From the NCBI GenBank assembly GCA_028699085.1, contig JAQVVF010000003.1, positions 25,721 through 89,720 on the forward strand: a DNA stretch of 64,000 nucleotides. Reading direction: 5' to 3'. Position numbers and translations under genes: made by a program. Below the pieces are notes generated by a model that ran no database searches, was not told where the DNA came from, and saw nothing but the letters and a program-made list of their open reading frames with translations. Positions 15,817-61,955 of the stretch are shown one piece after another; position 1 is the first letter of the stretch; each line of letters opens with the position of its first letter. The DNA is from Patescibacteria group bacterium (GTDB taxonomy: Bacteria; Patescibacteriota; JABMPQ01; JAQVVF01).

Positions 15817-15879
15817 ATTATACTATATTAACAAAAAAGTCAACAATTGATTGACAGTATTTTGCCAGATTGCTAAAAT
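15817..15879. promoter_or_regulatory. Divergent sigma-70 promoters
   Basis: Leftward promoter for 15343..15780: -35 TTGACT (reverse complement of 15838-15843), then a 15-nt spacer (short, possibly miscounted), then -10 TATAAT (reverse complement of 15817-15822). Rightward promoter for 15900..17057: TTGACA at 15851-15856, a 17-nt spacer, then TAAAAT at 15874-15879. Confidence 0.55.
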
Positions 15880-15899
15880 GTAAAATACAGTTTAAAAAA

Positions 15900-17057
15900 A
15901 TGAATCCCACAAAACCAAACAAAATTCGTTTTATTATTTTGATTGTAATTCTAATTATTACCGTTGTCTTTGGTACCCTAATAATTACCGATAAAAATCA
16001 TGTTCTTTTAGCAAAAATTACTCGCACACCTCAACAAAAAAACACAACTAAGATTATTGTTAATGATAAAGATCAAAAAAAAGAATTTACTTCCGAAAAA
16101 GAATCATTGCAAGAAGCTTTGAAAGATAATAATATTTCTATTTTTCAACATGACATTGTAACACCAAAATTAGACACTAATATCAAAAAATACAGTCTAC
16201 TTATAGTTGATATTCAAAGGAAATACGCTGTTACAATTATTGATAAAAAAAATAAACAAGAAATTGTTACTGACAAAAATATTATTAAGGATATTCTAAA
16301 AGAGCAAAAAATTAAGCTAATTAAAGAAGACACGATTATTCCAAATTTGAATGACAAAATCGAACACAACGGAAAAATAATAATCTCCAGAGCAAATTCT
16401 GTAAATATCATAGTCGATGGTCAGGAAAGAAATATCAAGACTCATTTAAAAAAAGTTGACAAAATCATCGCTCAAGCTGGTATTAAATTGGACAAAGATG
16501 ATTATTCTATCCCAGACAAAAACTCTAAAATAAAAAATAATGCTAGTATCGAAATTATTCGAGTTACCAAAAAAACTGAAACAACAAAAGATGAAATTGC
16601 TTTTGAAACAGAAACAGAATATTCAGATCAGATGTACGAAGATGAACAAAAAGTCACCCAAGAAGGTGCAAACGGAATTCTTGAGAAAATCTATGAAATT
16701 AAGTTGGAGAATAATAAAGAAATCAGCAGAAAACTAGTTTCAGAAAAAAACACCCTAGAACCACAAAACAAAATTATTGTTTACGGCACAAAAAAACACC
16801 CTATTGGAAAAATAATTACTGGCGGCCGCGCAACTTATTATTATGGACCAACGATTGCAGCCTGTAACCTCTTTCCAGCCGGAACAAGGCTAAAAGTCAC
16901 AAATACAAGTACTGGTCAGAGTATTGAAGTCACAGTTGACGATACTGGTGGGTTCGGCTGGCCAACAGTAATCGATTTACGTTATGATTATTTCGAAAAA
17001 ATCGGTGGCACAGTCAGTGCCGGCGTAATTAATGTCACAATTGAAGAAATACTTTAA
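15900..17057 (+). CDS. Cell-wall-associated protein with a DUF348-like domain, a G5-like domain and a C-terminal 3D (MltA-like DPBB) domain; YabE/Rpf-type
   Basis: There is an N-terminal TM helix. The C-terminus reads GRATYYYGP...CNLFPAGTRLKVTNTSTGQSIEVTVDDTGGFGWPTVIDLRYDYF, typical of 3D-domain lytic-transglycosylase-like proteins. The track ORF begins at a TTG at 15870; the ATG at 15900 is preferred. Confidence 0.6.
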   Translation: MNPTKPNKIRFIILIVILIITVVFGTLIITDKNHVLLAKITRTPQQKNTTKIIVNDKDQKKEFTSEKESLQEALKDNNISIFQHDIVTPKLDTNIKKYSLLIVDIQRKYAVTIIDKKNKQEIVTDKNIIKDILKEQKIKLIKEDTIIPNLNDKIEHNGKIIISRANSVNIIVDGQERNIKTHLKKVDKIIAQAGIKLDKDDYSIPDKNSKIKNNASIEIIRVTKKTETTKDEIAFETETEYSDQMYEDEQKVTQEGANGILEKIYEIKLENNKEISRKLVSEKNTLEPQNKIIVYGTKKHPIGKIITGGRATYYYGPTIAACNLFPAGTRLKVTNTSTGQSIEVTVDDTGGFGWPTVIDLRYDYFEKIGGTVSAGVINVTIEEIL

Positions 17058-26430: not shown

Positions 26431-27183
26431 CTAATCGCTCGAGAATGGAGTGCATTTTGGCTTTGCTTTAACAATTCTATCAACAATACTACTTCTTTTT
26501 ATCTCATCAATCCTTTCTTGACCTTTGCTCCAAACATACACTTTCATCTTACTTATCCTATCGAATCCATTAATTGAAACATCAGATCTAAAAATCAACT
26601 TATATTTTTTATCATCTAAAACAATTTCAAATGAAACAGTGCAAAAATAATCTCGACCTTTACAAGCTACATCAACACGTTTATTCCAATTTGAATTACA
26701 CTTATATCTCATTTGCGACAATTCTTCTATCCATCGCATTTCTTCTGGATCAAATAATTTATCATTCATAACAAAAAACTCTCTCCAATAATCATTTCTA
26801 ATCTTTTTCTTTTCTTTTTGTTTTATAACCTTTTTATCTAAAACAGCAACTTGTTCTTCCTGTTTTTGCAAATCAACATCAGACATCAACAAAACCACAC
26901 CTAGATCATCTGCAATACCAATATCATGTTCATCATAACTAAAGATTTTTTGCCCTGCATCAATATTAAAACCTTTTTGCTGATTGCTAAAATCAACGCT
27001 AAACAAAAACAACATTGACAAACAAATCAACAATGGACTTCCAATAAATATTTTCTGAAATTGAAAATTTATAATTTTGTGTTTCAATTTAGAAATTTGA
27101 GAATTAGATAACTCTCTTGCTATCGGAATAAAATTATTAATTACAACTTTTAACAATTCAATTGCGTTCTTTATTCTCGACAT
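26431..27183 (-). CDS. Hypothetical protein with one N-proximal TM helix. The preferred start is MSRIKNAIELL, behind a strong Shine-Dalgarno sequence (AAGGAGGAGcagaaATG).
   Basis: The track ORF runs to 27228, but the internal ATG at 27181-27183 has a canonical RBS. No known domain. It is adjacent to the RAYT-like gene. Confidence 0.45.
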   Translation of the reverse strand: MSRIKNAIELLKVVINNFIPIARELSNSQISKLKHKIINFQFQKIFIGSPLLICLSMLFLFSVDFSNQQKGFNIDAGQKIFSYDEHDIGIADDLGVVLLMSDVDLQKQEEQVAVLDKKVIKQKEKKKIRNDYWREFFVMNDKLFDPEEMRWIEELSQMRYKCNSNWNKRVDVACKGRDYFCTVSFEIVLDDKKYKLIFRSDVSINGFDRISKMKVYVWSKGQERIDEIKRSSIVDRIVKAKPKCTPFSSD

Positions 27184-27200
27184 TTCTGCTCCTCCTTTTT

Positions 27201-27785
27201 TCAAAGAACGTTCTTTTGCTTTATACAAATCTTATTATTGACAGAAATATTATTTCTATCACAATGCCAATTTTGCGAATTTAAAATTATGTATGAACGA
27301 ATAGAATCTAACGATTTTTCATTACGAATGACATGATCATAATATCGTGATTGCCAAGCAAAATCACAATTATTCTTTAAAATTTCAATTGTGCAAATAC
27401 GTTTATATTGATTTATAATCAAGCCCAAACATCCAGATTTCCATTTTTTTATAGACGTAGAGACGCCCAACTTGGGCGTCTCTACGCAATCATTAAAATT
27501 ACTATTTTTATTTATAATCAAAATTCCATGAATATGATTAGGCATTACTATAAAATTATCTAAATGAACACCAGAAAAATGCTTTGGAATTTCATGCCAA
27601 AATTTCCTAACAATTTTTCCAATCTCTGACAGATAGATTTTACCGTCAACAACATTACCAAAATATTGTATACGATTCTGCGTACAGATCGTAATAAAAT
27701 AAGCGCCATCTGAAGAATAATCAAAATCTTTCAAACGTGCGCTTTGAATTCTATATCTGTTTAAAAATTTATGCCCTCCATTCAT
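27201..27785 (-). CDS. IS200/IS605-family-like HUH tyrosine transposase, RAYT type (TnpA_REP-like)
   Basis: The HUH motif is VMPNHIHGILI. The catalytic-Tyr region WQSRYYDHVIRNEKSLDSIRSYIILN matches W-Q-x-R-[FY]-[YH]-[DE]-H-x-I-R. The size (194 aa) fits a RAYT. No TnpB is present and no terminal inverted repeats flank the gene. Confidence 0.7.
   Translation of the reverse strand: MNGGHKFLNRYRIQSARLKDFDYSSDGAYFITICTQNRIQYFGNVVDGKIYLSEIGKIVRKFWHEIPKHFSGVHLDNFIVMPNHIHGILIINKNSNFNDCVETPKLGVSTSIKKWKSGCLGLIINQYKRICTIEILKNNCDFAWQSRYYDHVIRNEKSLDSIRSYIILNSQNWHCDRNNISVNNKICIKQKNVL
27457..27485. repeat. GC-rich perfect palindrome GTAGAGACGCCCAA-c-TTGGGCGTCTCTAC inside the RAYT coding sequence
   Basis: 13-14-bp arms with GTAG/CTAC ends. 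It encodes VETPKLGVST in the RAYT and is strongly GC-biased against an AT-rich background. Confidence 0.6.
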
Positions 27786-30054: not shown

Positions 30055-32712
30055 TTATTCCTGAAGTTTAGATCCTCTAGCTATATAATTAATTGATATT
30101 CCGCCAATTTTTTTAAAGGATCCTCCTGCATATAATTCTCCATTATAGTCCGCTAATGTTAAAACTTTTCTAATTTCAAATATTGGGGCAGCTACTGAGT
30201 TAAGATTAAGCCAAGTCACACCATTCAATACAGCAACATTATAAAACTCATTTGTACCTGATCTAAAAAATTGTCCACCAATATATATCTTATTATTGTA
30301 TTCTGACAAAGCATAAATCGAACCTGGTATCCATGACCCCAACATACTTAAAGAATTACCATTCCATTTATAGACGTACGAATGCAATTCTTCAGAACCA
30401 TTTTCTAATGCTTGTCCTGTAATATATAACTTATTATTATGTGCATATAATCGACCCCAACCAATACGATTGTTGTCAATGTGCCGTCGGTATAGTTCGC
30501 TCCGAAACGACACTTTGCTCCAAACCGAACCATTCCACTTTGCCAAGTTATTAGACTCATAACCATCAATACTATTAAATAATCCTAAAATATACAATTC
30601 ATTATCATATACAGCCATAGAATTAATATAACCATTAAAACCTACACCATCTCCTGCAACCCCTTCCCAAGACACACCATCCCATACCATAATACCACTA
30701 TGATTATCAAGATAACCATCTCTTAAATAGTTCAAAGTAAAGTCTCCTCCAGCATATAATTTATTTCTATAAACTACTAGAGAAGTAATGTTGCTGTCAC
30801 CTATAACATTTGCTACTTGCATACCAGTCCTAGTCCACGACACACCATCCCACTTCATAACTGTATAACCCACAGCTGCATACAATTCAGTTCGAAATGA
30901 AGCCAAAGCAGTAACAGTACCATTAAGCCCAAGCCCAGAACCAAGCGGAATCCAAGAATTCTCGTACCACATAGCTATATTGCTCATTCTGGAACCATTA
31001 ATTACCATTTCAAAATTCCCTCCAATTATTAAACTCTCATTGTGAACAACTGAAGAAGTAACATAAAAAGCACGACCGGGAACTTCCTCAAAAACAACAG
31101 AGTCGTCGAGAGCGCTCCAATTCCAATTAACTGCAACTGCAAACTGCATTTCCATTTTAGGTATCTTATTAAAATAGACTGTAAATTTATTATCAATTAT
31201 ATTTAATCTAACTTTTGCGTTTTTCCAATAATTTGCTAGAGAAATCCACCTGCCCGACTTTTCACGCACAATCAATGCCATATTACTTTCTTTAACTAAT
31301 GAATTTTTCCTCTTCAATGCTTTAAATTCTGCCTGCGTATATTGAAAAGTGACTTTCACCTGATATTTTTGCTTCTTCTTTTTTGCTTTGTATTCTTTTA
31401 GATTACTTTTTAAGGTCCAAACTTTCTTTAAAGTTGTTTTTTTAGTGTTTTTAAATTTAGCTGGATGTTTTTCAGACTTTCTCCACTTCATATAATACTT
31501 GCTGCCTTTTGTTAATTTCGTTGGCAACTTTTTAAAGTATAACTTTAAATCTTGTCCAGAAATTGTTTCTTTCTTTAATGCTTTTTTTAATTTGACTTTC
31601 TTTCCATCAACTAAATTTTGTTGTTGTATTTCAACTGTAGTAGGCTCTGGAGTTGGAGTTGGAGTAGATTCAACCCATTTGGAAATATAATTAGCAGAAC
31701 TGCCACTAGCAACTGTAAAATTACCACCAGCATAAAGCTCGCTGTTGTATACTGCTAAAGCCAAGACTGTACTATTCATTCCAGAACTTAATGCACTCCA
31801 AGATGTACCATTCCATTTTGCAATATAGTTAGCAGAACTGCTATCAGCAGTTGTAAAACTTCCCCCAGCATATAGTTCACTATTAAAAAATACTAATGAA
31901 TAAACTGCTCCATTCATTCCAGATCCAATAGCACTCCAAGAGGAACCATCCCATCTTGCAATATAGTTAGCAAAACTGCCACCAGCAGTTGTATAATTAC
32001 CGCCTACGTATAAATAACTGCTATCTGCTGTCAATGACAAAACCGAACCATTCATGCCAGAACTTAATGTCTGCCAGCCTAAAGAAGTATCTAATTTAGC
32101 AATATGTGCTCCAATATTTGTAAAATCTCCGCCTGCATACAATTTATCATTAAAAACCGTTAATGCGCTTACTTTTTGATCTGGATCTGTAGACCAAGCG
32201 TGATCCCAAATACTGCCATTCCATTTTGCAAGATTACTCATCGCAAAACCACCAGCAGTAGTAAATTCTCCGCCAGCATATAAAACACTGCTATGAACAG
32301 CCAAAGAATAAATTGGACCATTCATTCCAGTACCAACAGCGCTCCAAGATGTACCATTCCATTTGGCAATATAGTTAGCCGAGCTACCATCAGCAGTTGT
32401 AAAAGTTCCTCCAGCATACAAATAAGTGCTATCAACTGCTAAAGCATGGACTGCTCCATTCATTCCTGATCCAACTGCACTCCAAGATGTACCATTCCAT
32501 TTGGCAATATAACTAGTGGAAGTTCCTCCAGCAGTTGTAAAACTGCCTCCGGCATACAATTCATTATTGTATACTGCCAAAGCATTAATTCCGCTATTTG
32601 TTCCAGTACTAACTGCGTTCCAACTTCCAGCCAAACTTTCGTTTGCTAATCCCAAAATACCAAATACCAAAAACGCCACACAAAACAAAAGCTTCGATAA
32701 ATACTTTTTCAT
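30055..32712 (-). CDS. Large secreted repeat protein (Kelch-like repeat beta-propeller), with the lysine-rich module inserted internally (family member B)
   Basis: The signal peptide is MKKYLSKLLFCVAFLVFGILGLA. There are at least 12 repeats of LYAGG(S/N)FTTA.G.S.NYIAKWNGTSWSA(V/L)G.GMNG.V.ALAV. A TPTPTPEPTT linker precedes the lysine-rich module KKLPTKLTKGSKYYMKWRKSEKHPAKF...VWTLKSNL...VKVTFQYTQ, which is followed by a second set of repeats. Confidence 0.7.
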   Translation of the reverse strand: MKKYLSKLLFCVAFLVFGILGLANESLAGSWNAVSTGTNSGINALAVYNNELYAGGSFTTAGGTSTSYIAKWNGTSWSAVGSGMNGAVHALAVDSTYLYAGGTFTTADGSSANYIAKWNGTSWSAVGTGMNGPIYSLAVHSSVLYAGGEFTTAGGFAMSNLAKWNGSIWDHAWSTDPDQKVSALTVFNDKLYAGGDFTNIGAHIAKLDTSLGWQTLSSGMNGSVLSLTADSSYLYVGGNYTTAGGSFANYIARWDGSSWSAIGSGMNGAVYSLVFFNSELYAGGSFTTADSSSANYIAKWNGTSWSALSSGMNSTVLALAVYNSELYAGGNFTVASGSSANYISKWVESTPTPTPEPTTVEIQQQNLVDGKKVKLKKALKKETISGQDLKLYFKKLPTKLTKGSKYYMKWRKSEKHPAKFKNTKKTTLKKVWTLKSNLKEYKAKKKKQKYQVKVTFQYTQAEFKALKRKNSLVKESNMALIVREKSGRWISLANYWKNAKVRLNIIDNKFTVYFNKIPKMEMQFAVAVNWNWSALDDSVVFEEVPGRAFYVTSSVVHNESLIIGGNFEMVINGSRMSNIAMWYENSWIPLGSGLGLNGTVTALASFRTELYAAVGYTVMKWDGVSWTRTGMQVANVIGDSNITSLVVYRNKLYAGGDFTLNYLRDGYLDNHSGIMVWDGVSWEGVAGDGVGFNGYINSMAVYDNELYILGLFNSIDGYESNNLAKWNGSVWSKVSFRSELYRRHIDNNRIGWGRLYAHNNKLYITGQALENGSEELHSYVYKWNGNSLSMLGSWIPGSIYALSEYNNKIYIGGQFFRSGTNEFYNVAVLNGVTWLNLNSVAAPIFEIRKVLTLADYNGELYAGGSFKKIGGISINYIARGSKLQE

Positions 32713-32800
32713 AATTTAATTTTATTTTTATATAATAAATTTTATTACATAAATTATAACACAAAAGAAGAAGAAGAAGAAAGTTATACACACAAAAAAA

Positions 32801-32826
32801 TAGGGGCATAAAATTTTATGCCCCTA
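32801..32826. terminator. Perfect 26-bp palindrome TAGGGGCATAAAAT|TTTATGCCCCTA. It probably acts as the bidirectional terminator after recA and is related in sequence to the palindrome at 29917.
   Basis: It is flanked by A7 and A5/T tracts. 11 of 14 arm positions are identical to the 29917-29944 palindrome. Confidence 0.6.
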
Positions 32827-32888
32827 CAAAAATAATTTTTTAATTTCCGTCAGTACTTTATAACTTTAAGAACTTTACAACTTTCGTA

Positions 32889-49297: not shown

Positions 49298-50731
49298 TCA
49301 TTTGACATTTTTAATTTGTAATTTCTTGAGCTCTTCTTTCGCTACCTTTCGATCATCCCATTCTATTCCTTTTCCAGATCCAACAGGTCCAGTCATTATC
49401 ATTTGCTCACAACCTTTGCCAGTTATCAAAATCACATCATTTGCATGTGCTTTTTTTATTGCCAAAGCAATTGCCTCTCGTCTATTTAAAATCTTAAACA
49501 AATTCTCATCCAATCGTTTTGGCAAAGCATTAGAGATTCTATTAGATTTATTAGAGATAGTATTCGAGAAATCAATAGCACCCTGCGCCACATCATCAAT
49601 AATTTTCTGCGGGTCATCATCGTAAGGATCTTCATTAGTCACAATAACGATATCAGCAAATTTTGCTGCTAAAGCTCCTAATTTTGGCCGTCTCGCCACA
49701 TCTCTTCCTCCTCCTGTCGATCCAAGCACTGAAATTAGCTTGCCTATTTTATTTTTATCTTCCGCTTCTTCAAATTTCCGATTTTCTGACGTTCCGATTA
49801 TCTGACGCACTGTTTTATAAACATTCTCGAGAGCTACTGGCTCAAAAGCATAATCAACAATTACTTTAAAATTCTGCCCTTCTTCTATAAATTCCATTTT
49901 ACCCAAATGCAATTTTACAGTTTTCAAAATCTCAGCCGATTTTTTTAAATCGATTCCATATAGAAAAGCAACAGCGATTGCAGACAACGCATTATACACG
50001 TTATACTCGCCAAGCATATTCAAAGTAAAATCAACATTTTTTTCAACATTAGTCATTTGACATTGGTCATTCATTTGGCATTTGTAATTTGTAATTTGAA
50101 ATTTAACCTGCAATCCTTCAGTTTTAATATCGATTGCGTGCAAATTACAGTTTCCATTTTTAATTCCAAAAGTTAATTTTTCTCTAACTAAAAAATCTAA
50201 AAACTCTGGCGCATATTTGCTATCAGCATTTGCAACGATTTTATTTTTTACAACTCTGAAAAATTTTAGCTTTGCTTTTTTATAATTTTCAAAACCACCA
50301 TGCGCCTCAACATGTTCAAAAAATAAATTCGTAAACACCCCACAATCAAAATCAATTCCTTTATGGCGATATTGTTCAATTCCTTGTGACGTTACTTCAA
50401 TTACGCAAAAATTACAACCTGCTTGAACAGCCTTTTTCAAAAATTTTTGTGTTTTAAACCTTCCTAACATTGTCTGTTTGTATTTGCTAATCCACCCATC
50501 TTCTTTAATCGCAAAATTTGATGTCGACATCATTGCGCAATTTTTTCCAGATTTTTGCAAAATTTGATAAATCAAATTACAAGTTGTTGTTTTTCCAGTC
50601 GTACCAGTCACGCCAATTACAGTCAGCTTTTTAGATGGATGTCCGTACAAAAAAGCAGCCAGTTCAGCCAATATAAAGTGGTAAAGCCTTAAAATCGGTT
50701 TTGGTATAATTTTTCGTAAAATATTCATCAT
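49298..50731 (-). CDS. murE: Mur ligase family protein, probably UDP-N-acetylmuramoyl-tripeptide synthetase MurE
   Basis: The P-loop is GVTGTTGKTTT. The Mur ligase middle and C-terminal domains are present (…DVILITGKGCEQ…). There is an odd in-frame insert, NYKCQMNDQCQMTN. The gene ends with a TGA stop. Confidence 0.75.
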   Translation of the reverse strand: MMNILRKIIPKPILRLYHFILAELAAFLYGHPSKKLTVIGVTGTTGKTTTCNLIYQILQKSGKNCAMMSTSNFAIKEDGWISKYKQTMLGRFKTQKFLKKAVQAGCNFCVIEVTSQGIEQYRHKGIDFDCGVFTNLFFEHVEAHGGFENYKKAKLKFFRVVKNKIVANADSKYAPEFLDFLVREKLTFGIKNGNCNLHAIDIKTEGLQVKFQITNYKCQMNDQCQMTNVEKNVDFTLNMLGEYNVYNALSAIAVAFLYGIDLKKSAEILKTVKLHLGKMEFIEEGQNFKVIVDYAFEPVALENVYKTVRQIIGTSENRKFEEAEDKNKIGKLISVLGSTGGGRDVARRPKLGALAAKFADIVIVTNEDPYDDDPQKIIDDVAQGAIDFSNTISNKSNRISNALPKRLDENLFKILNRREAIALAIKKAHANDVILITGKGCEQMIMTGPVGSGKGIEWDDRKVAKEELKKLQIKNVK

Positions 50732-50874: not shown

Positions 50875-52857
50875 TTACTTCACGCCAATCGTAAACAAAG
50901 TATCTTTCTGTTTAAAATATCTAATATCAGTCGCAAAAGTATTCTTCTTGGTATTTTGTTTCGTATTAGTAATCAACTTTAACCTATTAGCATTATACCA
51001 AGTTTTTGTGCCTTTGTCATAAAATTTCAACCACAACTTTTTCTCTGCCTGTTTTTTAGTTAGCTTCTTCAAATCAGAATTTTTTAATCTTAATCTGTTT
51101 GATAATTTTTGAGTGTAATAGAATTTTACTTTGACTCTGAACATCTTTTTTTGATATTTTTCTACTTTGTTTTTGTATGACTTCGATGTTTCATCGCTAC
51201 AAGCTGGATTATAATAGCAAGTTACATAATTGCTTTCTGCCTTTATTAATTTGCTTCTCGATTTTTTATGATAGCTATATAAATTCGTTTTAATTTTCCA
51301 ATATCTTTTTATTGCTTGCTTTTTTACATTTGCATAGTTTTTTGCATATTTTTTGTATCTGTATGTTTGCATCCAATAATTCTCTGAATTATTAGGCAGT
51401 TTTTTCCAGATATATGATAAATCATAGTTAACTACCTCAACATCTTCCTGCGGAATTACTTTGTCTGATGAATTATCATCAGTTGAAGTTAAAGTAGTTG
51501 ACGATACATTTCCAGCCCAATCTGAGACTCTGAAATATACAGTTTTAACTGTTGAGCCTGAAGCATTATGAATACCAGTCAAAGTTGCTGAAGTCAATGC
51601 TGTTCCTGCTGTCAAAGGATCGCAAGTATTGCTTTCATCAATACAATAATATTTAGCTCCACCCATTTTTGCATAATCAGATGCTGACAGGTTGTAGCTG
51701 AATTGATCGCCTGATTTGCCAGTTAATGCGACTGTTGCTGTTGGAACAACGCTATCAAGTAAAACGAAATTAGTATTCTGGCTAGCAGTATTGTAATAAG
51801 CAATAAAATCGTTATTATTGCCATGAGCAATTGAATTCAGAGTTGAATTCTCCATTCCGACTATTGAAGAAATAATTCCTGAAGCGCTATTATATGCATA
51901 ACCTAAATAATTATTGCCAAAATAATAGTGTGAAAGATGTTCATAATTTTGGCTATCCAAGGCAATTGATGGAGAAAAACCAGGATATCCTCCAGTAGAT
52001 GATACATAGGCAGAAGATGTAAACCCTGAAAGATTACCACTTGCTACTTGCAAAGAAGAACTACTAACATCAACATATGTGTATGCAATCTTAACAACAT
52101 CATCACTTCCTACTGAAATTGAATTTCCGTAATAATTTCCCCCTGCAGCTGTAACAATACCAGACAATGTGCCATTTGCATAATTTACAGCATATTTTGT
52201 AGATAAATTAGTTCTGTCAGAATAAGAAACATGAATATTATCCTGCAAATCAACAGCTGATGATATATCATAAATATTACCTGCCAAAAGTGTTCCAACA
52301 ACCCAATTAGAACCAGTCCAATGAGCATATTTCAATCGATTATCAGTATCGCCTGCATGATACTGATAATAAATATGTGGAGTACCATCAGATCTCAATA
52401 CCATTGAAGTCTGCAAACCAGTATCTCCAGTTGTATCAATTGCCTCCTGCCCAGCCCACAAATCATTACTCTTTTTCACATATCTTAAATCACCATTATA
52501 ATAATAACTAATATGAACATCATCGTTGCTCTTATTAATAGCGATTGAACAATATTTACCATATCCAGAACCAATTTCTTTAAATAAAGAATCAGTTGCC
52601 CAAAAACTTCCATTCCAATAGATATGGCGCAAACCAGAAATAGTAGTACCACCAACTTCTTCATAATAAGCACAAATATGCGGATAATCATTACTATCAA
52701 GTGTTATAGAACGATCTCCTTTATAATTTCCCCCATAACTCATAATATTTCTAAAAAATACTTTTCCGCTTTCATTTGTTTGCGTATAAGCTTGCGCAAA
52801 TTGAAAACACAATAAACTAAAAAATACGACTAAAAAACTTGTTAATGCTTTCTTCAT
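50875..52857 (-). CDS. Secreted protein with an N-terminal beta-propeller-like region and the C-terminal lysine-rich module (family member C)
   Basis: The signal peptide is MKKALTSFLVVFFSLLCFQFAQA. The C-terminus reads WKKLPNNSENYWMQTYRYKKYAKNY...KRYWKIKTNL...FRVKVKFYYTQK. Confidence 0.65.
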   Translation of the reverse strand: MKKALTSFLVVFFSLLCFQFAQAYTQTNESGKVFFRNIMSYGGNYKGDRSITLDSNDYPHICAYYEEVGGTTISGLRHIYWNGSFWATDSLFKEIGSGYGKYCSIAINKSNDDVHISYYYNGDLRYVKKSNDLWAGQEAIDTTGDTGLQTSMVLRSDGTPHIYYQYHAGDTDNRLKYAHWTGSNWVVGTLLAGNIYDISSAVDLQDNIHVSYSDRTNLSTKYAVNYANGTLSGIVTAAGGNYYGNSISVGSDDVVKIAYTYVDVSSSSLQVASGNLSGFTSSAYVSSTGGYPGFSPSIALDSQNYEHLSHYYFGNNYLGYAYNSASGIISSIVGMENSTLNSIAHGNNNDFIAYYNTASQNTNFVLLDSVVPTATVALTGKSGDQFSYNLSASDYAKMGGAKYYCIDESNTCDPLTAGTALTSATLTGIHNASGSTVKTVYFRVSDWAGNVSSTTLTSTDDNSSDKVIPQEDVEVVNYDLSYIWKKLPNNSENYWMQTYRYKKYAKNYANVKKQAIKRYWKIKTNLYSYHKKSRSKLIKAESNYVTCYYNPACSDETSKSYKNKVEKYQKKMFRVKVKFYYTQKLSNRLRLKNSDLKKLTKKQAEKKLWLKFYDKGTKTWYNANRLKLITNTKQNTKKNTFATDIRYFKQKDTLFTIGVK

Positions 52858-52921
52858 TTTTTTATTTTATTTTTTATTAAAAATTTTATTAAATATATTA
52901 TAACACAAAATAATTTCAAAT

Positions 52922-54076
52922 CTAATTGATCTTTGCTACAACATTATAAAAAATCTGATACGCAATTCCTCCGCCAAAAATAATATACAAAATATAAATT
53001 AAAAATTTTGGTATTTTCAATGAATAAGCGGGCTTTAATTGTCCTTTTTTCTTTGCTTTCAAAAACATTCTCAAGATCATAATGCCTTGTAAACCGCCAG
53101 TCACTGTCCCTACTATCTCAATGACTGAAATAAAACTTCTTGCTCCCAAAAGAAAGATAATCAATGGTACAGAAACAACAATCAACCAAGAAACAAAATT
53201 ATTTATCTTATAATCAAATTTAAACATGTCCTTTAAAGACAATCCTAAACTAAAAAAAGAAGTTGCCACAGTCAAAACACCCAAAACCGCACCCATTATT
53301 ACCACTTTTCTACCCAATATTTTGCTGACACCTACGATTGCTTCTTCACTTGTTTGACCACCAGAAATTCCAACAATTGTTAAAGTAAAAAACAAATAAA
53401 CAATCAGAGAAATCAACATACCGCCAATAATTGCCATCTTTAATCTTTTCCTATTTTTTACCAATAGATCTGCCATTCTTGGTACGATAGAAGCACCTTC
53501 AAAAGAAAACAAAATTACTCCATATGGCAAAAACAAAAATGACCAAGAAAAACCACCTAAATTAGTATAATTAATTTCTTTAGCTCCTACAATAAATATC
53601 AATCCTACTATTATCAACAATAAAACAACAGAAATGTTTTCCAATTTTTTAATAACCTTCAAACCAAAAAGAATTGCAAAACTCGCCAATAAATAAAAAA
53701 TAACAGAATATATAAACGAAGTACCTCCAAAGTATTGTTTTAAGATAATTGACAAAAAATTACCTATCCCAATTGTATACGCCAAAAGAGCTCCAAAAAC
53801 TCCAAATATCATCGAAAAGGAAATTACTCTCTCTCCCCATTTGCCAGCATATCTCTTTGCATATCCAACCATTTGATGTCTCCCTTTTGTTCTTAACACA
53901 ATCTCACCAAAAGCTAGAGTCACAATACAAACCATCAAACCTAAAAATATCAAATATATAATGCCAATTAAAAAACCAACCTTCGAAACTACATAAGGAA
54001 TACCAAACATACCAGCTCCGATAATCGTTCCGACAAGTATCGCTACAGCACTAAAAAAATTACCTTGTATTTTCAT
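52922..54076 (-). CDS. Amino acid permease, HAAAP/aromatic-amino-acid permease-like, with about 11 TM helices
   Basis: It starts MKIQGNFFSAVAILVGTIIGAGMFGIPYVVSKVG..., typical of Mtr/TnaB/TyrP/SdaC-type transporters. 384 aa. Confidence 0.5.
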   Translation of the reverse strand: MKIQGNFFSAVAILVGTIIGAGMFGIPYVVSKVGFLIGIIYLIFLGLMVCIVTLAFGEIVLRTKGRHQMVGYAKRYAGKWGERVISFSMIFGVFGALLAYTIGIGNFLSIILKQYFGGTSFIYSVIFYLLASFAILFGLKVIKKLENISVVLLLIIVGLIFIVGAKEINYTNLGGFSWSFLFLPYGVILFSFEGASIVPRMADLLVKNRKRLKMAIIGGMLISLIVYLFFTLTIVGISGGQTSEEAIVGVSKILGRKVVIMGAVLGVLTVATSFFSLGLSLKDMFKFDYKINNFVSWLIVVSVPLIIFLLGARSFISVIEIVGTVTGGLQGIMILRMFLKAKKKGQLKPAYSLKIPKFLIYILYIIFGGGIAYQIFYNVVAKIN

Positions 54077-54093
54077 CTAATTTAATAAACACA

Positions 54094-55026
54094 TTATAAT
54101 TTTCGAAAAAAAATTTCTGTCGCAACGAAAACAAAATAAAACAATAACAAAAAAAATGCTTCTCTCTTCGTTAATATTCTTTCTGTCTTCATAAAAATAA
54201 ACAACAATATCATTGCAAACAACATAAAAAATCCAGTCACAAATATTAATCTAGCATCAAAGCTAAAAGGCATAATAACAACAGTTATTCCTAATACTAT
54301 TGTCGCATCAGTTATAACGGTTCCCAATATATCTCCCAAAGCCAATCCTTCTGCTTTGTTTCGCACTGCTTTAATCGAAAAAAATAATTCTGGCAAAGTA
54401 GTTCCTAAAGCTACAAAAAACATTCCAATAATTATTGGATTAATTTTAAAACCATTTGCTAACAATATCCCAAATTTCACTGTAAAATTTGAAGCAACTA
54501 ACAAAAATAATAAACTTATAATTAAAAAAAATAAGTTCTTATACGAAAAATTATAGCTTACTTTTTTATTTTTTTTCGTGCTCTTTTTAAAAATTAAAAT
54601 ATAAAATAACAATCCAGACAAAATCAACAATACTCCCTCCCAGCGAGCATAATATCCATTTAAACCAAAAAACAAAGGAATTAATATTATAAAAATATAT
54701 TTAAGATTATCTTTCAAAATTTTACTTTCTACCTTCACGCCTTTTTTCGAAAAGAAAACTACTATAGCAATTATTAAAGACAAATCCGCAACATTCGATC
54801 CAAACAAGGTACCTAAACCAAAAGCAGGTATGCCTTGTATAGCAGAAGAAACAGAAACCAATAATTCCGGCAATACAGATACTGCTGCCACTACTAAAAA
54901 ACCCAAAATATATTTTGAAAATCTAAAACTGCTAGCAACATTAGAAGAATACTTTATTGCCATATCAGCACTCTTAATTACCACAAACAATGAAAATAAA
55001 AAAACTAATCCATAGGTTATCACCAT
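54094..55026 (-). CDS. Ca2+/cation antiporter (CaCA family, YrbG-like Na+/Ca2+ exchanger)
   Basis: It has two alpha-repeats: SVLPELLVSVSSAIQG...GTLFGSNVADLSLII and GTTLPELFFSIKAVRNKAEGLALGDILGTVITDATIVLGI. About 10 TM helices. Confidence 0.7.
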   Translation of the reverse strand: MVITYGLVFLFSLFVVIKSADMAIKYSSNVASSFRFSKYILGFLVVAAVSVLPELLVSVSSAIQGIPAFGLGTLFGSNVADLSLIIAIVVFFSKKGVKVESKILKDNLKYIFIILIPLFFGLNGYYARWEGVLLILSGLLFYILIFKKSTKKNKKVSYNFSYKNLFFLIISLLFLLVASNFTVKFGILLANGFKINPIIIGMFFVALGTTLPELFFSIKAVRNKAEGLALGDILGTVITDATIVLGITVVIMPFSFDARLIFVTGFFMLFAMILLFIFMKTERILTKREAFFLLLFYFVFVATEIFFRKL

Positions 55027-55051
55027 AAAAATGACTTAAATAATAACTTAT

Positions 55052-55291
55052 CTATTTCCAAAATTCCCACCACTTTTTTTGTGTCTGTTCCTCTTTTTTA
55101 AATTCCTTCTCTCTCATCTTTTCTGCGATATCTTCCTGCTCATCAGGTCGTAAATTCAATTTATTTTCTCCATTCATTTCTTTGCGTTGTTTATCAATCG
55201 TTTTTTCTTGCATTCTGTTTGCAAAACCAGATTCTCGCGCATTTTCTCGCGTTTTTTCCACTCGATCAAAAGGATTTTGTTGGTCTACCAT
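55052..55291 (-). CDS. Hypothetical small charged protein, 79 aa
   Basis: A short ORF between a transporter gene and the GH18-like gene, with no motif. It could be spurious. Confidence 0.3.
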   Translation of the reverse strand: MVDQQNPFDRVEKTRENARESGFANRMQEKTIDKQRKEMNGENKLNLRPDEQEDIAEKMREKEFKKEEQTQKKWWEFWK

Positions 55292-55309
55292 AAAATTAAA
55301 ATTATTTTT

Positions 55310-57112
55310 TTAAACTGCACTAATTGCAAACATATTATTTTTCCAATCAAAATTTTCAATCCAAATTCTAAATTTCTTTTCCTTTCTTAAATATACTGCT
55401 GGCATTGTCTGCCAAGACCTACTATTATAATTATAAAATTTTAATTTCAAATCTTTTTTCTTCAATCCATGCAATAATTTATTTCTAAACTTAAAAACCA
55501 TTTTAATTTTAAATTTTCTATCACTTTTTATTTTGTTTAAATTTGATTCTATTCGCCAATAGCCCTTTAATGTTTTAGACTTTTCTAAACCACTCGGTTT
55601 TTTTGCAATTCTCGTTATTTTAAACCAATAATCAGTTGGCTTGCTAGGTAATTTTTTGAATTTAAAATCCAATAATTTTCCTTGTAAATTAAGATTTTTT
55701 AATCCTTTTCTTAAATCAAATTTTTTATCATTATAAATGATATTATAATTTTCCGTTCTGACAATTTCCTGATTTCCCAAATTATCAATTGAAAAGAACT
55801 TCAATACTTTATCATTAAAAATTCGAAACGGACTTGAATATTTTGTTGAACTAATAGTTGGAGTTGAACCATCAAGAGTATAATAAATCCCAGAAATTCC
55901 ATCACTATCAGTTGCAGTTAAAACAATCTTTTTATATTTTTTATAATCTCCTCCAGCAGGTGTTGCTATGGTTCTTGGTTCAAGAAAATTTTCTGAAATT
56001 TTATCCCACAATTCAGTATATGTCCCATCATATCCCAAGGCCCAAATCCCAATGCCTAACAAGTTATTATCATTCACTAAATCATACTTGTATTGCAAAC
56101 TTTCGGCATCTTCATACCAAGTCTGCTGAAAACTGCCATATTTATAATACGGCGTTTTCGAATCATTGTCCCAAATTCTCGAATAGTTTAATAATGCTAA
56201 CCTATTTTCAGCATAAGTTTTTGCCTCACCATCAGCAGTTGTATTTGCTGGAATAATATCCGCTGTAACTGGCCAATCATAGCCATAATATGGCACTCCT
56301 AAAATTAATTTTTGTCGATTAGTATTTGTTAAATTAAAATAAGTATCCAAAGTACTTTTCACATTATAATTGCCCCAAGTGCTACTATCATCATATGGCG
56401 AAATCGGCCCAGCTTCTGGACCTGTTTGCCAATGATAATCATAAGCCATGATCATTAATCCATCTGAATTTTGTGCCAAGGAATTTTCATCAAAAGAATT
56501 TGACCAATCAACTGCTGGCACATCAATTGCAATATGATAAGAAGAATTGGAAGCTTTAAAAGCATTATTTAAATCAGTAATAAAAGTAGTCAAATTTTCT
56601 TTCATCGAAGAATCAACATTTTCAAAATCAATATTTACTCCATCAGCAGATGTGTTTTTAACTTCATTCAATAAATTATTAATTAAATTATTTCTGTTTG
56701 TCGCGCTTGATAATAAAGTTGAAAGATCTGATGCATTAAAATTTTGTGCTGTTAAAACTACCTTAACGCCATTTTGATGAGCCAAATCCAACAACGTATT
56801 ATTCGGCCAACCATGTTTATCACCTAGACTTCCATTGCCATTAACTTCAATCGAAAAATAAGCAACATGAGTCAATAAATCCCATTGAAAATTAGTATAC
56901 GCATCTCCCATCCAATATGGATAAAAACCATAAACAACCTTAGATACGCTTGGCGTTGAACTTATGCTTCCATGGCTAACAATTCCAACATTATCTTGCA
57001 CTTTGTAGTCTCTATTTTTTTCCAATTCGATTTGATGGATACTTTTTCCGAAAACAAAATTTCCAGAAAACAGAAATGAACAAACAATTAATAGATAAAA
57101 TATTTTTTTCAT
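55310..57112 (-). CDS. Secreted glycoside hydrolase family 18-like protein with the C-terminal lysine-rich module (family member D)
   Basis: There is a signal peptide. GH18 motifs are VVYGFYPYW, DGVNIDFE (the DxxDxDxE catalytic motif with the Glu present) and MAYDYHW. The C-terminus reads FKKLPSKPTDYWFKITRIAKKPSGL...LKGYWRIESNL...FKIKMVFKF. Confidence 0.7.
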   Translation of the reverse strand: MKKIFYLLIVCSFLFSGNFVFGKSIHQIELEKNRDYKVQDNVGIVSHGSISSTPSVSKVVYGFYPYWMGDAYTNFQWDLLTHVAYFSIEVNGNGSLGDKHGWPNNTLLDLAHQNGVKVVLTAQNFNASDLSTLLSSATNRNNLINNLLNEVKNTSADGVNIDFENVDSSMKENLTTFITDLNNAFKASNSSYHIAIDVPAVDWSNSFDENSLAQNSDGLMIMAYDYHWQTGPEAGPISPYDDSSTWGNYNVKSTLDTYFNLTNTNRQKLILGVPYYGYDWPVTADIIPANTTADGEAKTYAENRLALLNYSRIWDNDSKTPYYKYGSFQQTWYEDAESLQYKYDLVNDNNLLGIGIWALGYDGTYTELWDKISENFLEPRTIATPAGGDYKKYKKIVLTATDSDGISGIYYTLDGSTPTISSTKYSSPFRIFNDKVLKFFSIDNLGNQEIVRTENYNIIYNDKKFDLRKGLKNLNLQGKLLDFKFKKLPSKPTDYWFKITRIAKKPSGLEKSKTLKGYWRIESNLNKIKSDRKFKIKMVFKFRNKLLHGLKKKDLKLKFYNYNSRSWQTMPAVYLRKEKKFRIWIENFDWKNNMFAISAV

Positions 57113-57122
57113 TATATATATT

Positions 57123-59090
57123 TTATTTTTCCGCTATCACAAACCAATTTTTCATCTTCGAAAACAATCTAATATCTGATACTAATAGATTCTTATTTTT
57201 TTTCAAAATCGTTTTATCTTTCTTTTTCCAATAATTAACATAGCTTTCTTGTTTTGAATATAAGACTAAATTCTTTTCTTTTATTCCAGCTTTTTTAATT
57301 TTCTTGCTTTTGTATGGAAAATAAATTTTTACTCGATATTTTCCTGCTGTTTTTTTGTACAAATTTGTCCTCAATTTCCAAAAATATTTTAATGATTTTT
57401 CATTCTTTAAAAAATTAGGCTTTTTTTTCACTTTATCAATTTGCATCCACATCTTTGTTGGATTGTCTGGCAAATCTAAAAATTTTATTCCAATGCCAGT
57501 TCTGCTCGAAACATATTTTGTTCCCAAAGAATCATCATTGAATCTTATATAATTATCAAAGGTTTTCACTGCAATTTTAGAAAATAATCCTACACTTGCT
57601 TCCGGCTCAATTTCCGTATATTTCCTTTCTCCAAAAGTTTTAACTAACCAATCACTATCAGAAGTTCCAGTTGAAAAACCAACTAATGCGAAATCATCAT
57701 TCTCATTAAAATCTATTCCAAAATACGTTTCATTATTACTTTCATTTTCCAGTAATGAATAAAGCAAATTACCATTGCTATCATATTTTCTAAGTGATAG
57801 ATCATTGCCACTTGCAACTTTAGAATCACCAACTAAAATTACTTGATTCAAGGAATTTATTGCCAAACCATACAAATAATCATTTCCTAATTCACTATCA
57901 AATAATCTATCCCATACTAAATTTCCTTCAGAATCAACTTTCCTTAACAACCAATTATTATCAGTCTCATTATAATATCCGCCTAAATAAATATTATTAT
58001 TTGAATCAACTTCTACTGCTCTAAAATAATTTGCTGTTCCTTTTTCATAACTCGTATTCCAATCTTCCACCAAATTATTAGTATATTTAATGGTATAAAA
58101 TTCTAAGCTCTCATCAGTTGCTCTATTTCCAGTAGCAATAATATTATTTTCTGAATCAACTGCTAAATCATACAAAATATCATCACCTAAAGCTGAATCG
58201 TAATCTTGATCAGTAATAATATTTCCATCTGCATCGTATTTTCTTAGATACCAATTTTTAGTTCCGCTTGTCCTATAGCCTCCAGCAATAACATTATCAT
58301 CGTTATCGACAATTACTGCATTTGCTTCATCATTTCCTCCAGAATCATAAGTCTTGCTCCACAAAATATTGCCATCACTATCGTATTTTCTAATATACCA
58401 GTCTTTATCACCAAGCGCTTCAGAATAACCAATTGCAATAATATTATCAAAACTATCAATTGCTAAATCTTTAACCTCGCCATTATCAAAATCAAAAGTT
58501 TCTGACCAAATTGATTCTCCATCTTCACTATATTTTTCTAATAACCAATCATAACCACCAGTTTCGTTTGCATAATTTCCCGCCACAACCAAATCGTTAG
58601 TTGACAAAAATTTTACGCTTTTTGCTTGATCATGACCGTTTTCACTATCATAATTTTTAACAAAAAAATTAACTGGCTCTAATTCCATAGTTTGATCAAA
58701 AGAACTAGCAGATTGCGCTTCTGAATTTCCAAAATATAGATAAATGTTTTTAATACTTTCAGCCAAAAGTTCCGGAACTTCTACCCAAATCGTTGCCAAA
58801 TTTTCTTCATAATCAAAACTTTTCAACCAAAAATCAAGCGAGGTTGAATCATTTGAATCAACGAATCTAATATCTGATCCATCACTTTTTATTCTTGACC
58901 AAAAATCAGTCTGTTCTTCATCTAAAACTATTTTTATTTGATGATTGCTTAGGTTTTCTGAATTCAAAGTATTATCCAATTCAATTGGCAAGCGATAATC
59001 ATAATCATTACTATACCAAGCCTTGGCATCTGAATTAAAAATAACAAAATAACCAAATAACAAAATTATGCCAATAAAAAATCGTTTCAT
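57123..59090 (-). CDS. Secreted beta-propeller repeat protein (SBBP-like repeats) with the C-terminal lysine-rich module (family member E)
   Basis: There is a signal peptide. It carries at least six repeats of the form DWY(I/L)RKYDSDGNxxW...D.G.D.A..V..D.DNN(I/V)I..GY. The C-terminus reads LDLPDNPTKMWMQIDKVKKKPNFL...LKYFWKLRTNL...YRVKIYFPY. Confidence 0.65.
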   Translation of the reverse strand: MKRFFIGIILLFGYFVIFNSDAKAWYSNDYDYRLPIELDNTLNSENLSNHQIKIVLDEEQTDFWSRIKSDGSDIRFVDSNDSTSLDFWLKSFDYEENLATIWVEVPELLAESIKNIYLYFGNSEAQSASSFDQTMELEPVNFFVKNYDSENGHDQAKSVKFLSTNDLVVAGNYANETGGYDWLLEKYSEDGESIWSETFDFDNGEVKDLAIDSFDNIIAIGYSEALGDKDWYIRKYDSDGNILWSKTYDSGGNDEANAVIVDNDDNVIAGGYRTSGTKNWYLRKYDADGNIITDQDYDSALGDDILYDLAVDSENNIIATGNRATDESLEFYTIKYTNNLVEDWNTSYEKGTANYFRAVEVDSNNNIYLGGYYNETDNNWLLRKVDSEGNLVWDRLFDSELGNDYLYGLAINSLNQVILVGDSKVASGNDLSLRKYDSNGNLLYSLLENESNNETYFGIDFNENDDFALVGFSTGTSDSDWLVKTFGERKYTEIEPEASVGLFSKIAVKTFDNYIRFNDDSLGTKYVSSRTGIGIKFLDLPDNPTKMWMQIDKVKKKPNFLKNEKSLKYFWKLRTNLYKKTAGKYRVKIYFPYKSKKIKKAGIKEKNLVLYSKQESYVNYWKKKDKTILKKNKNLLVSDIRLFSKMKNWFVIAEK

Positions 59091-60939: not shown

Positions 60940-61452
60940 ATGAAGAAAACAATTCTATTTTGTTTAGCTTTATTTTTTACATCATGTGCAATCGACAAAG
61001 AAGACAAATGTGAAATCTGCGTACAAACTGTGTCATGCGAAAACATCGGCTGGCTAAATTTTGGAGACAGAGACAACATTGATTTAATCAATGAATGTGG
61101 TTTTGAATATAATAATGGTGAAAAGGGCGGATATGGCCATACACTTCAAGAAAAAGGCTGTAATGAAAGCATGTTATTGATCTGGGCAAATGGTGGCTTA
61201 AAAAACGCTTATCTTTCAGCTGACTGGGCTGGAGAAACAAACCGCGGTACAAAGATTAATGATTCCCTTGCCGAATTCCGAAAAGCCTATCCAGAAGCAG
61301 TAAAAAGTGATTTTGAAAGCAATAACGAATACGAATTATGGAAAGTAATCACTTACAAACCCTATCCCGAATCATTAGACTACTGTAGCATGCATTTCAT
61401 CTTTGATCGTCAAACAATAAAATTAGTCAGCATCAGAATCTATAGTTACTAA
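60940..61452 (+). CDS. Putative lipoprotein (the signal peptide ends in the lipobox-like FFTSC)
   Basis: It starts MKKTILFCLALFFTSCAIDKE. It is cysteine-rich, is paralogous to the next ORF, and has a strong RBS. Confidence 0.55.
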   Translation: MKKTILFCLALFFTSCAIDKEDKCEICVQTVSCENIGWLNFGDRDNIDLINECGFEYNNGEKGGYGHTLQEKGCNESMLLIWANGGLKNAYLSADWAGETNRGTKINDSLAEFRKAYPEAVKSDFESNNEYELWKVITYKPYPESLDYCSMHFIFDRQTIKLVSIRIYSY

Positions 61453-61466
61453 AGGAGGAAAAAAAG

Positions 61467-61955
61467 ATGAATAGAAAACTATGTCTTCCAATTTTCCTTG
61501 CATTCTTCAACTTCGAATGCGGAGATCAGTGCGTAAATATAGATGAGCAGCTAGAATGCAATGGGCTTGAAAATATTAAGTTTGGAGACAGCGTCACTTC
61601 TACTCTTGACGAAGAGTGTTTCCATAGTTACGGTCGAGGCAATTTCACTATTTACGAAAAATATGGTATTTCTATTTTCACACTTGGTGACGCAGATAAT
61701 AGCAACTATATTGTCTATTCTTTTCATCTGACAACCGGCTGGATTGGACAAACTGATCGAGGACTAAAACTAGGAGATCCAATCGAAAAATTCAACACTC
61801 TATATCCCAAATCAGAATCCTATCCCGGTTCAGTACCTTCTCTCATAAATCCTGATGTCTATCTCGAAGCAGAACAAGCAACTTGTGACACACATACGCA
61901 TCTTCAAGTTTACCCTGACGAACAAGGAAATATTTTTTACATGATTTTATGGTAG
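61467..61955 (+). CDS. Putative secreted or lipoprotein paralog of 60940..61452
   Basis: Shared segments include ENIGWLNFGD/ENIKFGDS and WAGETNRGTKINDSLAEFRKAYP/WIGQTDRGLKLGDPIEKFNTLYP. The RBS is AAGGAGGaaaaaaagATG. Confidence 0.5.
   Translation: MNRKLCLPIFLAFFNFECGDQCVNIDEQLECNGLENIKFGDSVTSTLDEECFHSYGRGNFTIYEKYGISIFTLGDADNSNYIVYSFHLTTGWIGQTDRGLKLGDPIEKFNTLYPKSESYPGSVPSLINPDVYLEAEQATCDTHTHLQVYPDEQGNIFYMILW

Follow-up and report, generated by a model that had tools for sequence, protein, structure and literature searches.

The shared module and the genes that carry it

The stretch of DNA analysed here (64,000 nucleotides, called the window below) comes from a metagenome-assembled genome (MAG) of an uncultured bacterium of the Patescibacteria, or Candidate Phyla Radiation (CPR), and it carries five genes, labelled A to E and all on the minus strand, whose products share a lysine-rich module of about 121-183 amino acids (aa) (Table 1). 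Three of them, A, B and C, had been described in a first-pass annotation as open reading frames (ORFs) for signal-peptide proteins with unrelated N-terminal parts that end in one common module, and these ORFs were present exactly as claimed, with hidden Markov model (HMM) boundaries and alignments agreeing on the common module. That annotation had also spoken of five tails, and the other two copies, those of D and E, were found by tblastn of the A, B and C tails against the window; both lie outside the segment it had described, and the copy in E is internal.

Sec-type signal peptides open all five window proteins, including the three for which they had been claimed, and the parts that follow in A, B and C were indeed unrelated: protein B carries a GH18 domain (Pfam E = 2e-40) with CHB_HEX_C_1, protein C a DUF2341 domain and a delta-60/DUF5122-type propeller, and the N-terminal part of protein A, for which no Pfam match was obtained, has about seven repeats (H[IV]xY...LxY) that were seen by eye and look propeller-like in sequence. 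Proteins A, C and E are identical to those of an NCBI MAG entered as "Patescibacteria group bacterium" (PHN19_ locus tags; MDD3887623.1 for A and MDD3887628.1 for C).

Table 1. Features discussed in the text. Coordinates are those of the window, except where another locus is named in the first column; residues (aa) refer to the encoded protein, and i-E is the independent E-value of the HMM match.
Feature	Coordinates	Strand	Description
Gene A	50875..52857	-	660 aa; signal peptide, ~7 propeller-like repeats, Ig-like spacer, module
Module of A	50878..51423	-	aa 479-660; i-E 7.8e-42; two insertions
Cys insert in module of A	~51150..51290		protein A aa ~525-570
Region upstream of A	52858..52980		resembles region upstream of E
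Gene B	55310..57112	-	600 aa; signal peptide, GH18 aa 61-362, CHB_HEX_C_1 aa 385-452, module
Module of B	55313..55675	-	aa 480-600, exact C-terminus; i-E 3.7e-46
Gene C	57123..59090	-	655 aa; signal peptide, DUF2341 aa 70-137, delta-60/DUF5122-type propeller repeats, module
Module of C	57126..57497	-	aa 532-655, exact C-terminus; i-E 3.8e-43
Gene D	3286..4731	-	481 aa; signal peptide, BNR/Reg_prop-like propeller, module
Module of D	3289..3663	-	aa 357-481, exact C-terminus; i-E 6e-44
Gene E	30055..32712	-	885 aa; signal peptide, DUF5122 propeller, PT-rich linker, module, second propeller
Module of E	31126..31551	-	aa 388-529, internal between two related propellers; i-E 1.1e-41
Region upstream of E	32713..32840		resembles region upstream of A
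recA to efp	29070..33911		gene E in between
Mur ligase	49298..50731		
RpfB-like gene	15870..17057	+	DUF348, G5, DPBB lytic transglycosylase-like
Unannotated ORF	26431..27228		265 aa
Y1_Tnp match	27201..27785	-	weak, IS200-like; Pfam E 4e-05
First ORF of pair	60940..61452	+	170 aa; hydrophobic N-terminus, several Cys
Second ORF of pair	61467..61955	+	162 aa; hydrophobic N-terminus, several Cys
Sister genome, L009	10001..11716		recA adjoins efp
Sister genome, L009	3362..4918		module gene and radical-SAM/SPASM gene
Sister genome, L011	10001..11656		recA adjoins efp
MAG122, L002	1906..3378		module gene downstream of coupling-protein gene
MAG122, L004	1043..3571		module gene downstream of coupling-protein gene

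Scanning the window with the family HMM gave exactly five copies (E = 1e-23 to 1e-41), with no degenerate copies and no other scoring region. All ten pairs of modules scored above 300 composition-preserving shuffles in Smith-Waterman alignment (z = 3.5-17.6), and eleven columns were invariant among the five window copies (L, P, K, W, N, L, K, F, L, W, F). Conservation in the module is column-specific, at W, F, Y, P, T, N, L and G positions, and the consensus of 70 sequences (F.KLP.KLK..KYY…KKYP…LKKYWK..TNL.KY…FK.K..FKY..KE.K.LKK.N…KEK.L.LKYY…W…H..KKN.F…F…YFAIG.K) agrees with the core motif that had earlier been aligned by eye. The basic content had been put too high, at over 30% K/R, as the window modules measured 26-29% K+R (K alone 21-26%), with an isoelectric point (pI) of 10.1-10.5.

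One subfamily, made up of protein A and the family members P0005, P0006 and P0036, has an insert of ~45 aa behind the TNL.KY motif, in which a Cys-x(5-6)-Cys pair is conserved, and a second insert of ~11 aa (KKLTKKQAEKK). The two cysteines suggest a disulfide loop, which would be in keeping with an extracellular location.

Family, predicted fold and charge

An HMM was built and used in an exhaustive hmmsearch of 1.84 billion representative proteins (standing for ~15 billion and clustered at 50% identity), which gave 75 family members at E<=1e-3, 59 of them at E<1e-10, with E-values in other MAGs reaching 8e-27. All named members come from Patescibacteria MAGs. A word-indexed protein search with the 5- and 57-sequence module alignments gave no scoring match, even though the collection contains the window proteins in identical form, and this looks like a limit of the index with lysine-rich queries. 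A scan of the GTDB species representatives, with a 10-sequence subset as query, placed module loci in only three MAGs, and several paralogues are found per genome: at least seven in this MAG, at least five in a MAG handled here as MAG122, at least four in GCA_964574655.1 and at least three in the WC663 MAG. Placement by RecA gave no single class within Patescibacteria, the named neighbours (73-82% identity) carrying the labels Parcubacteria group, Doudnabacteria, Magasanikbacteria and Torokbacteria.

Each member has one copy of the module, which ends at the last residue of the protein in ~70 of the 75. Internal modules were seen only in protein E and in P0024 and P0027, where a second propeller follows and the last strand of the module is still recognisable (…FEFMIVE / …FDFMIAD). 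The fusion of one module to diverse extracellular domains, which had been read from three proteins in the first-pass annotation, was borne out across the 75: CHB_HEX_C_1/Fn3_assoc was found in 21 members, and the other partners are FG-GAP, Lactonase, Reg_prop, NHL and BNR propellers, HYDIN/ASH Ig-like domains, GH18, Metallophos and DUF2341. Sec-like N-termini were present in 59 of 77 proteins, and most of the others look like fragments (non-ATG or internal starts).

No described domain accounted for the module, in agreement with the earlier statement that it matched none that could be named; searches of Pfam-A 2025, NCBIfam 20.0, PHROGs and PDB sequences gave no consistent or above-threshold match, and no Pfam or NCBIfam model reached its curated threshold over the module region of the window proteins. 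When 57 modules were scanned against Pfam at E<=10, the matches listed (the 25 families with most members, of 81) were scattered and inconsistent, the commonest being ORF6N in 5 of the 57 with a best E of 0.39. SLH, LysM, CW_binding_1/2, GW/SH3_8, PG_binding, SPOR, ZU5 and Por_Secre_tail were absent among these listed matches; ZU5 was also absent from the five full-length window proteins (Pfam, E<=1), and neither the listed matches nor the family architectures gave any dockerin or cohesin signal. Permissive NCBIfam and PHROGs scans of the same 57 modules likewise returned only scattered, inconsistent matches, with no sorting-signal model and no TIGR04183. A NAM match on the module of protein B (E = 0.037) was taken as chance, being far below threshold and the sole overlapping Pfam match, and Collagen_bind_2 and GWxTD matches on modules were rejected on the same ground of chance. 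The module is an undescribed, lineage-restricted and probably extracellular domain of Patescibacteria.

The structure of the module alone was predicted with AlphaFold2 (AF2). Using 57 family sequences, the module of protein B was modelled (m00d9d83b442d) with a predicted local distance difference test score (pLDDT) of 94.1 and a predicted template modelling score (pTM) of 0.87, superseding a model from five sequences only (pLDDT 71), and the predicted structure is a sandwich of ten strands with one short helix. In a fold comparison the model came closest to ZU5/GAIN_B domains: DNAI7 scored 8.7, ankyrin ZU5 domains 8.1, 7.9 and 7.8, the GAIN domains of BAI3 and CD97 7.8 and 7.7, the ZU5 domain of UNC5B 6.9 and the FIIND domains of CARD8/NLRP1 6.8 and 5.7. 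Foldseek of the model against the PDB gave nothing significant, and sequence profile searches of the PDB at E<=10 gave zero matches, GAIN and ZU5 chains included.

Charge is distributed very unevenly along these proteins. Across the family the module has a mean pI of 10.4 (minimum 9.5) and 28% K+R, whereas the passengers of the same proteins have a mean pI of 5.2 and 7% K+R, and other window proteins have 14.7% K+R. At a pairwise identity of only ~30%, fourteen alignment columns are nevertheless at least 70% K/R, and they lie mainly in strands that alternate lysine with hydrophobic residues (e.g. FKIKMVFKF), and therefore the lysines probably point to the solvent. The conserved positive charge, a mark of polyanion binders, is confined to the module.

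Other means of anchoring were not apparent. No transmembrane-like (TM-like) segment was found in the last 140 aa of any member (maximum 15-aa hydropathy 1.52), no lipobox was seen by eye in the five window signal peptides, and no tripartite sorting signal of the LPXTG or PEP-CTERM type (motif, hydrophobic TM helix and basic tail) was present across the family, so the earlier exclusion of LPXTG stands.

Genomic setting of the module genes

The module genes stand singly among housekeeping genes (uvrA, polX, recA, efp, rpoBC, Mur ligase and tsaB). In the window, gene E lies between recA and efp, but in two sister genomes (RecA 95% identical) recA adjoins efp and there is no gene E. One of these sisters has a module gene, together with a radical-SAM/SPASM gene, between rpoC and ftsK, and at a further locus of MAG122 (L007) a module gene likewise adjoins efp. 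The module genes thus behave as variable insertions among core genes, and such rapid gain and loss between sisters with 95% identical RecA is as expected for surface or interface proteins.

Across 12 loci no conserved neighbouring gene was found. The one exception comes from a single MAG, MAG122, in which the gene immediately upstream of the module gene at L002 and at L004 encodes a type IV coupling protein (VirD4/TraG/TrwB-like). This adjacency could reflect a segmental duplication, the context of an integrative element or a functional link. No coupling protein, sortase or peptidase adjoins a module gene at the five window genes or at five of the seven loci from the GTDB scan (L002-L008).

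Only 10 nucleotides (nt) separate the stop of gene C from the start of gene B, for which reason the two genes are probably co-transcribed as an operon. A search for an upstream motif common to the five genes gave only A-rich leaders, plus an extended -10-like TGTGTTATAAT in A and E. Upstream of these two genes the sequences are alike over ~50 nt, in which an extended -10-like TTTTGTGTTATAAT is followed by an A-rich leader, and AAAAATAAAAT stands just ahead of the start codon in the leaders of A, B, D and E.

Elsewhere in the window an RpfB-like protein is encoded, and this together with the Mur ligase points to a peptidoglycan wall in this bacterium. The weak match to an IS200-like Y1 transposase overlaps the end of an unannotated ORF, and two adjacent plus-strand ORFs without Pfam match possibly encode a tandem pair of secreted proteins or lipoproteins. 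An Rfam scan of the window gave no match.

Function of the module and comparison with known systems

To our knowledge, surface display and host attachment by ultrasmall CPR bacteria are largely unknown, and most of their surface proteins have no recognisable anchor. Architecture and charge lead us to infer that the module serves in surface retention or adhesion and does so by binding, non-covalently, to a polyanionic component of the envelope, a reading to which we give a probability of roughly 0.45. The proteins would be exported by Sec with cleavage of the signal peptide, and the acidic passenger (propeller, glycosidase or Ig-like spacer) would be displayed outside the cell. The C-terminal basic domain would then bind a polyanionic envelope component non-covalently and largely by charge, candidates being an anionic wall glycopolymer, the phospholipid head groups of the cell itself or the surface of a host cell, and the passenger would thereby be kept at the cell surface or at a cell-cell interface. 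Export, retention and the nature of the ligand are all parts of this inference. It is favoured because of the charge split, the lack of any other anchor, the single copy on unrelated passengers and the fact that the module is tolerated as an internal domain; in the subfamily of protein E there is a passenger on either side of the module, which fits a binding domain and not a terminal signal. The mobility of the module among unrelated passengers and the several paralogues in each small genome give further support.

Several points weigh against retention by charge. The near-obligatory C-terminal position (~70 of 75) is needless for a simple binder and could point to a role in recognition, folds of the ZU5 type are classically protein-protein interaction domains, and the richness in lysine is partly the background of a 31% GC genome, yet the passengers of the same proteins are lysine-poor.

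On another view there is no domain but merely a set of K-rich low-complexity tails from an AT-rich genome, as the base composition and the lysine content of the module (21-26%) would allow. The first-pass annotation had named K-rich sequence with no positional conservation as the result that would speak against its proposal; positional conservation was found, both in the shuffle z (up to 17.6) and in the family HMM, and with column-specific W/F/Y/P/T/N/L/G conservation, E-values to 8e-27 in other MAGs, a pLDDT of 94 and passengers of only 7% K+R the low-complexity view is refuted. A protein-protein docking module of ZU5-like fold and dockerin-like logic, by which one envelope-protein receptor (an S-layer, pilus or scaffold) would serve many passengers, would explain why there is one copy per protein in an almost always terminal place, and would suit the confinement to a narrow clade, as expected for a lineage-specific receptor. 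In the fold comparison the module came nearest to the spectrin-binding ZU5 domains and to DNAI7, a protein that docks on microtubules, and the aromatic and hydrophobic positions that are candidates for a surface (YW, TNL, FAIG) are strongly conserved beside the lysines. We nevertheless consider docking unlikely, as no recurrent neighbour that could be the receptor was found in the 12 loci, there is no Pfam dockerin or cohesin signal, and so extreme and conserved a net charge would sooner be expected of a polyanion binder. The first-pass annotation had offered binding of polyanions or nucleic acids as an alternative to anchoring. Charge of this kind (pI 10.4, 14 conserved basic columns) would serve the capture of extracellular DNA or another soluble polyanion, with nucleic acids or acidic polysaccharide substrates being captured and the protein not anchored; Patescibacteria rely on scavenged nucleotides and DNA, and GH18 and a Metallophos phosphoesterase are among the passengers. 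Most passengers, however, are propellers or Ig-like domains unlinked to nucleic acids, the fold matches include no known nucleic-acid-binding fold or motif, and that enzymes so different carry one and the same module speaks for a shared location more than for a shared substrate, so that such capture appears very unlikely.

A sorting domain had been put forward in the first-pass annotation alongside anchoring. As a C-terminal sorting or secretion signal the module would be recognised and possibly removed by a dedicated machine, in the manner of the C-terminal domain (CTD) of the type IX secretion system (T9SS) or of positively charged type IV secretion signals. The strict C-terminal position in ~70 of 75 members, the conserved last strand (FAIG.K) and the two MAG122 genes directly downstream of VirD4/TraG-like coupling proteins would suit it, but the proteins already bear Sec signal peptides, the module is a predicted folded beta-sandwich of 120-140 aa that stands internal and complete in the subfamily of E, P0024 and P0027, no dedicated processing gene recurs beside the module genes at the loci compared, and there is neither a hydrophobic tail nor a match to Por_Secre_tail or an NCBIfam sorting-signal model; this reading is disfavoured and we regard it as highly improbable. 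The predicted fold also raises the GAIN_B-like MAIN domains, which are common in bacterial surface proteins, where they lie between passengers and a C-terminal anchor and cut themselves at an HX(S/T) motif that is conserved in the turn leading into the final strand (Brogan & Rudner, bioRxiv 10.64898/2026.05.12.724683; Patescibacteria are not mentioned in the main text of that paper). An autoproteolytic domain of this sort would free the passenger under shear, and the module does hold the same architectural place in secreted proteins, where it comes behind adhesive and enzymatic domains (bioRxiv 10.64898/2026.05.12.724683). This possibility is already largely refuted: HX[STC] occurs in the last 45 aa of only 5 of 70 modules, stray and in no common register at the turn that leads into the last strand, residues vary in the columns just ahead of FAIG (K/T/N/D, Y/N/T/I/L), no anchored part follows the module, PDB sequence searches at E<=10 matched no GAIN or ZU5 chain, and Foldseek gave nothing significant. 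Lacking HX(S/T), and with nothing behind it in the chain, the module is not a functional MAIN domain, although a distant evolutionary link is possible. It is decidedly unlikely that the module is a catalytically dead, polycationic GAIN_B/ZU5 (MAIN) offshoot which a small Patescibacteria clade has made its general means of fixing propeller and glycosidase proteins, a rapidly changing stock, to a host bacterium at its anionic envelope; if true, the module would serve an epibiont in attachment to its host, and the surface biology of CPR bacteria would be tied to the GAIN/MAIN lineage.

The surface-retention domain that we favour would matter chiefly within its clade, since the family comprises only 75 clusters (at 50% identity) among 1.84 billion representatives. 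Within that clade a single domain of ~125 aa marks a whole set of secreted proteins (at least seven in this genome, of roughly 1 Mb class), and this set is gained and lost between near-identical genomes. The module merits an entry in Pfam or NCBIfam and could be expressed by itself for binding tests.

That one retention module should be common to many secreted proteins is a concept already well known, and it is the sequence family that is new. SLH, LysM and CW_binding_1/2 resemble it in this respect, each being common to many extracellular enzymes, but they have other folds, are usually repeated and had no sequence match among the matches listed. The T9SS CTD (Por_Secre_tail, TIGR04183) is closer in form, being a beta-sandwich of ~80-120 aa that forms the extreme C-terminus of many secreted proteins, otherwise unrelated, and is present several times per genome; it shares no sequence match with the module, however, which is basic and can be internal, and no PorU, PorV or SprA was seen in the 64 kb window and the few loci. 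As far as we know, Patescibacteria are regarded as having neither an outer membrane nor a T9SS. Compared with the ZU5 domains of ankyrin, UNC5 and the FIIND of NLRP1/CARD8 (PF00791), the module is presumably extracellular, bacterial and polycationic, and no Pfam ZU5 match was listed for it. Like MAIN/GAIN_B domains it occurs in signal-peptide proteins after diverse adhesion and enzymatic domains, but an anchor follows MAIN whereas here the module is itself the C-terminus in ~70 of 75 members, and it is strongly basic, ~125 aa long and predicted to have 10 strands, with no similarity at the sequence level. If the model is right, the ZU5/GAIN_B-like fold space that has just been recognised in microbial surface proteins gains, with this module, a member that is basic and non-catalytic. 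The GW modules (SH3_8) of Listeria InlB and Ami are basic, C-terminal and bind lipoteichoic acid non-covalently; they differ in their SH3-like fold, unrelated sequence and tandem arrays, the present module being single-copy, and the likeness is a functional analogy only, in which a basic C-terminal domain, whose binding is here predicted, would retain a Sec-exported protein that has no LPXTG or TM anchor.

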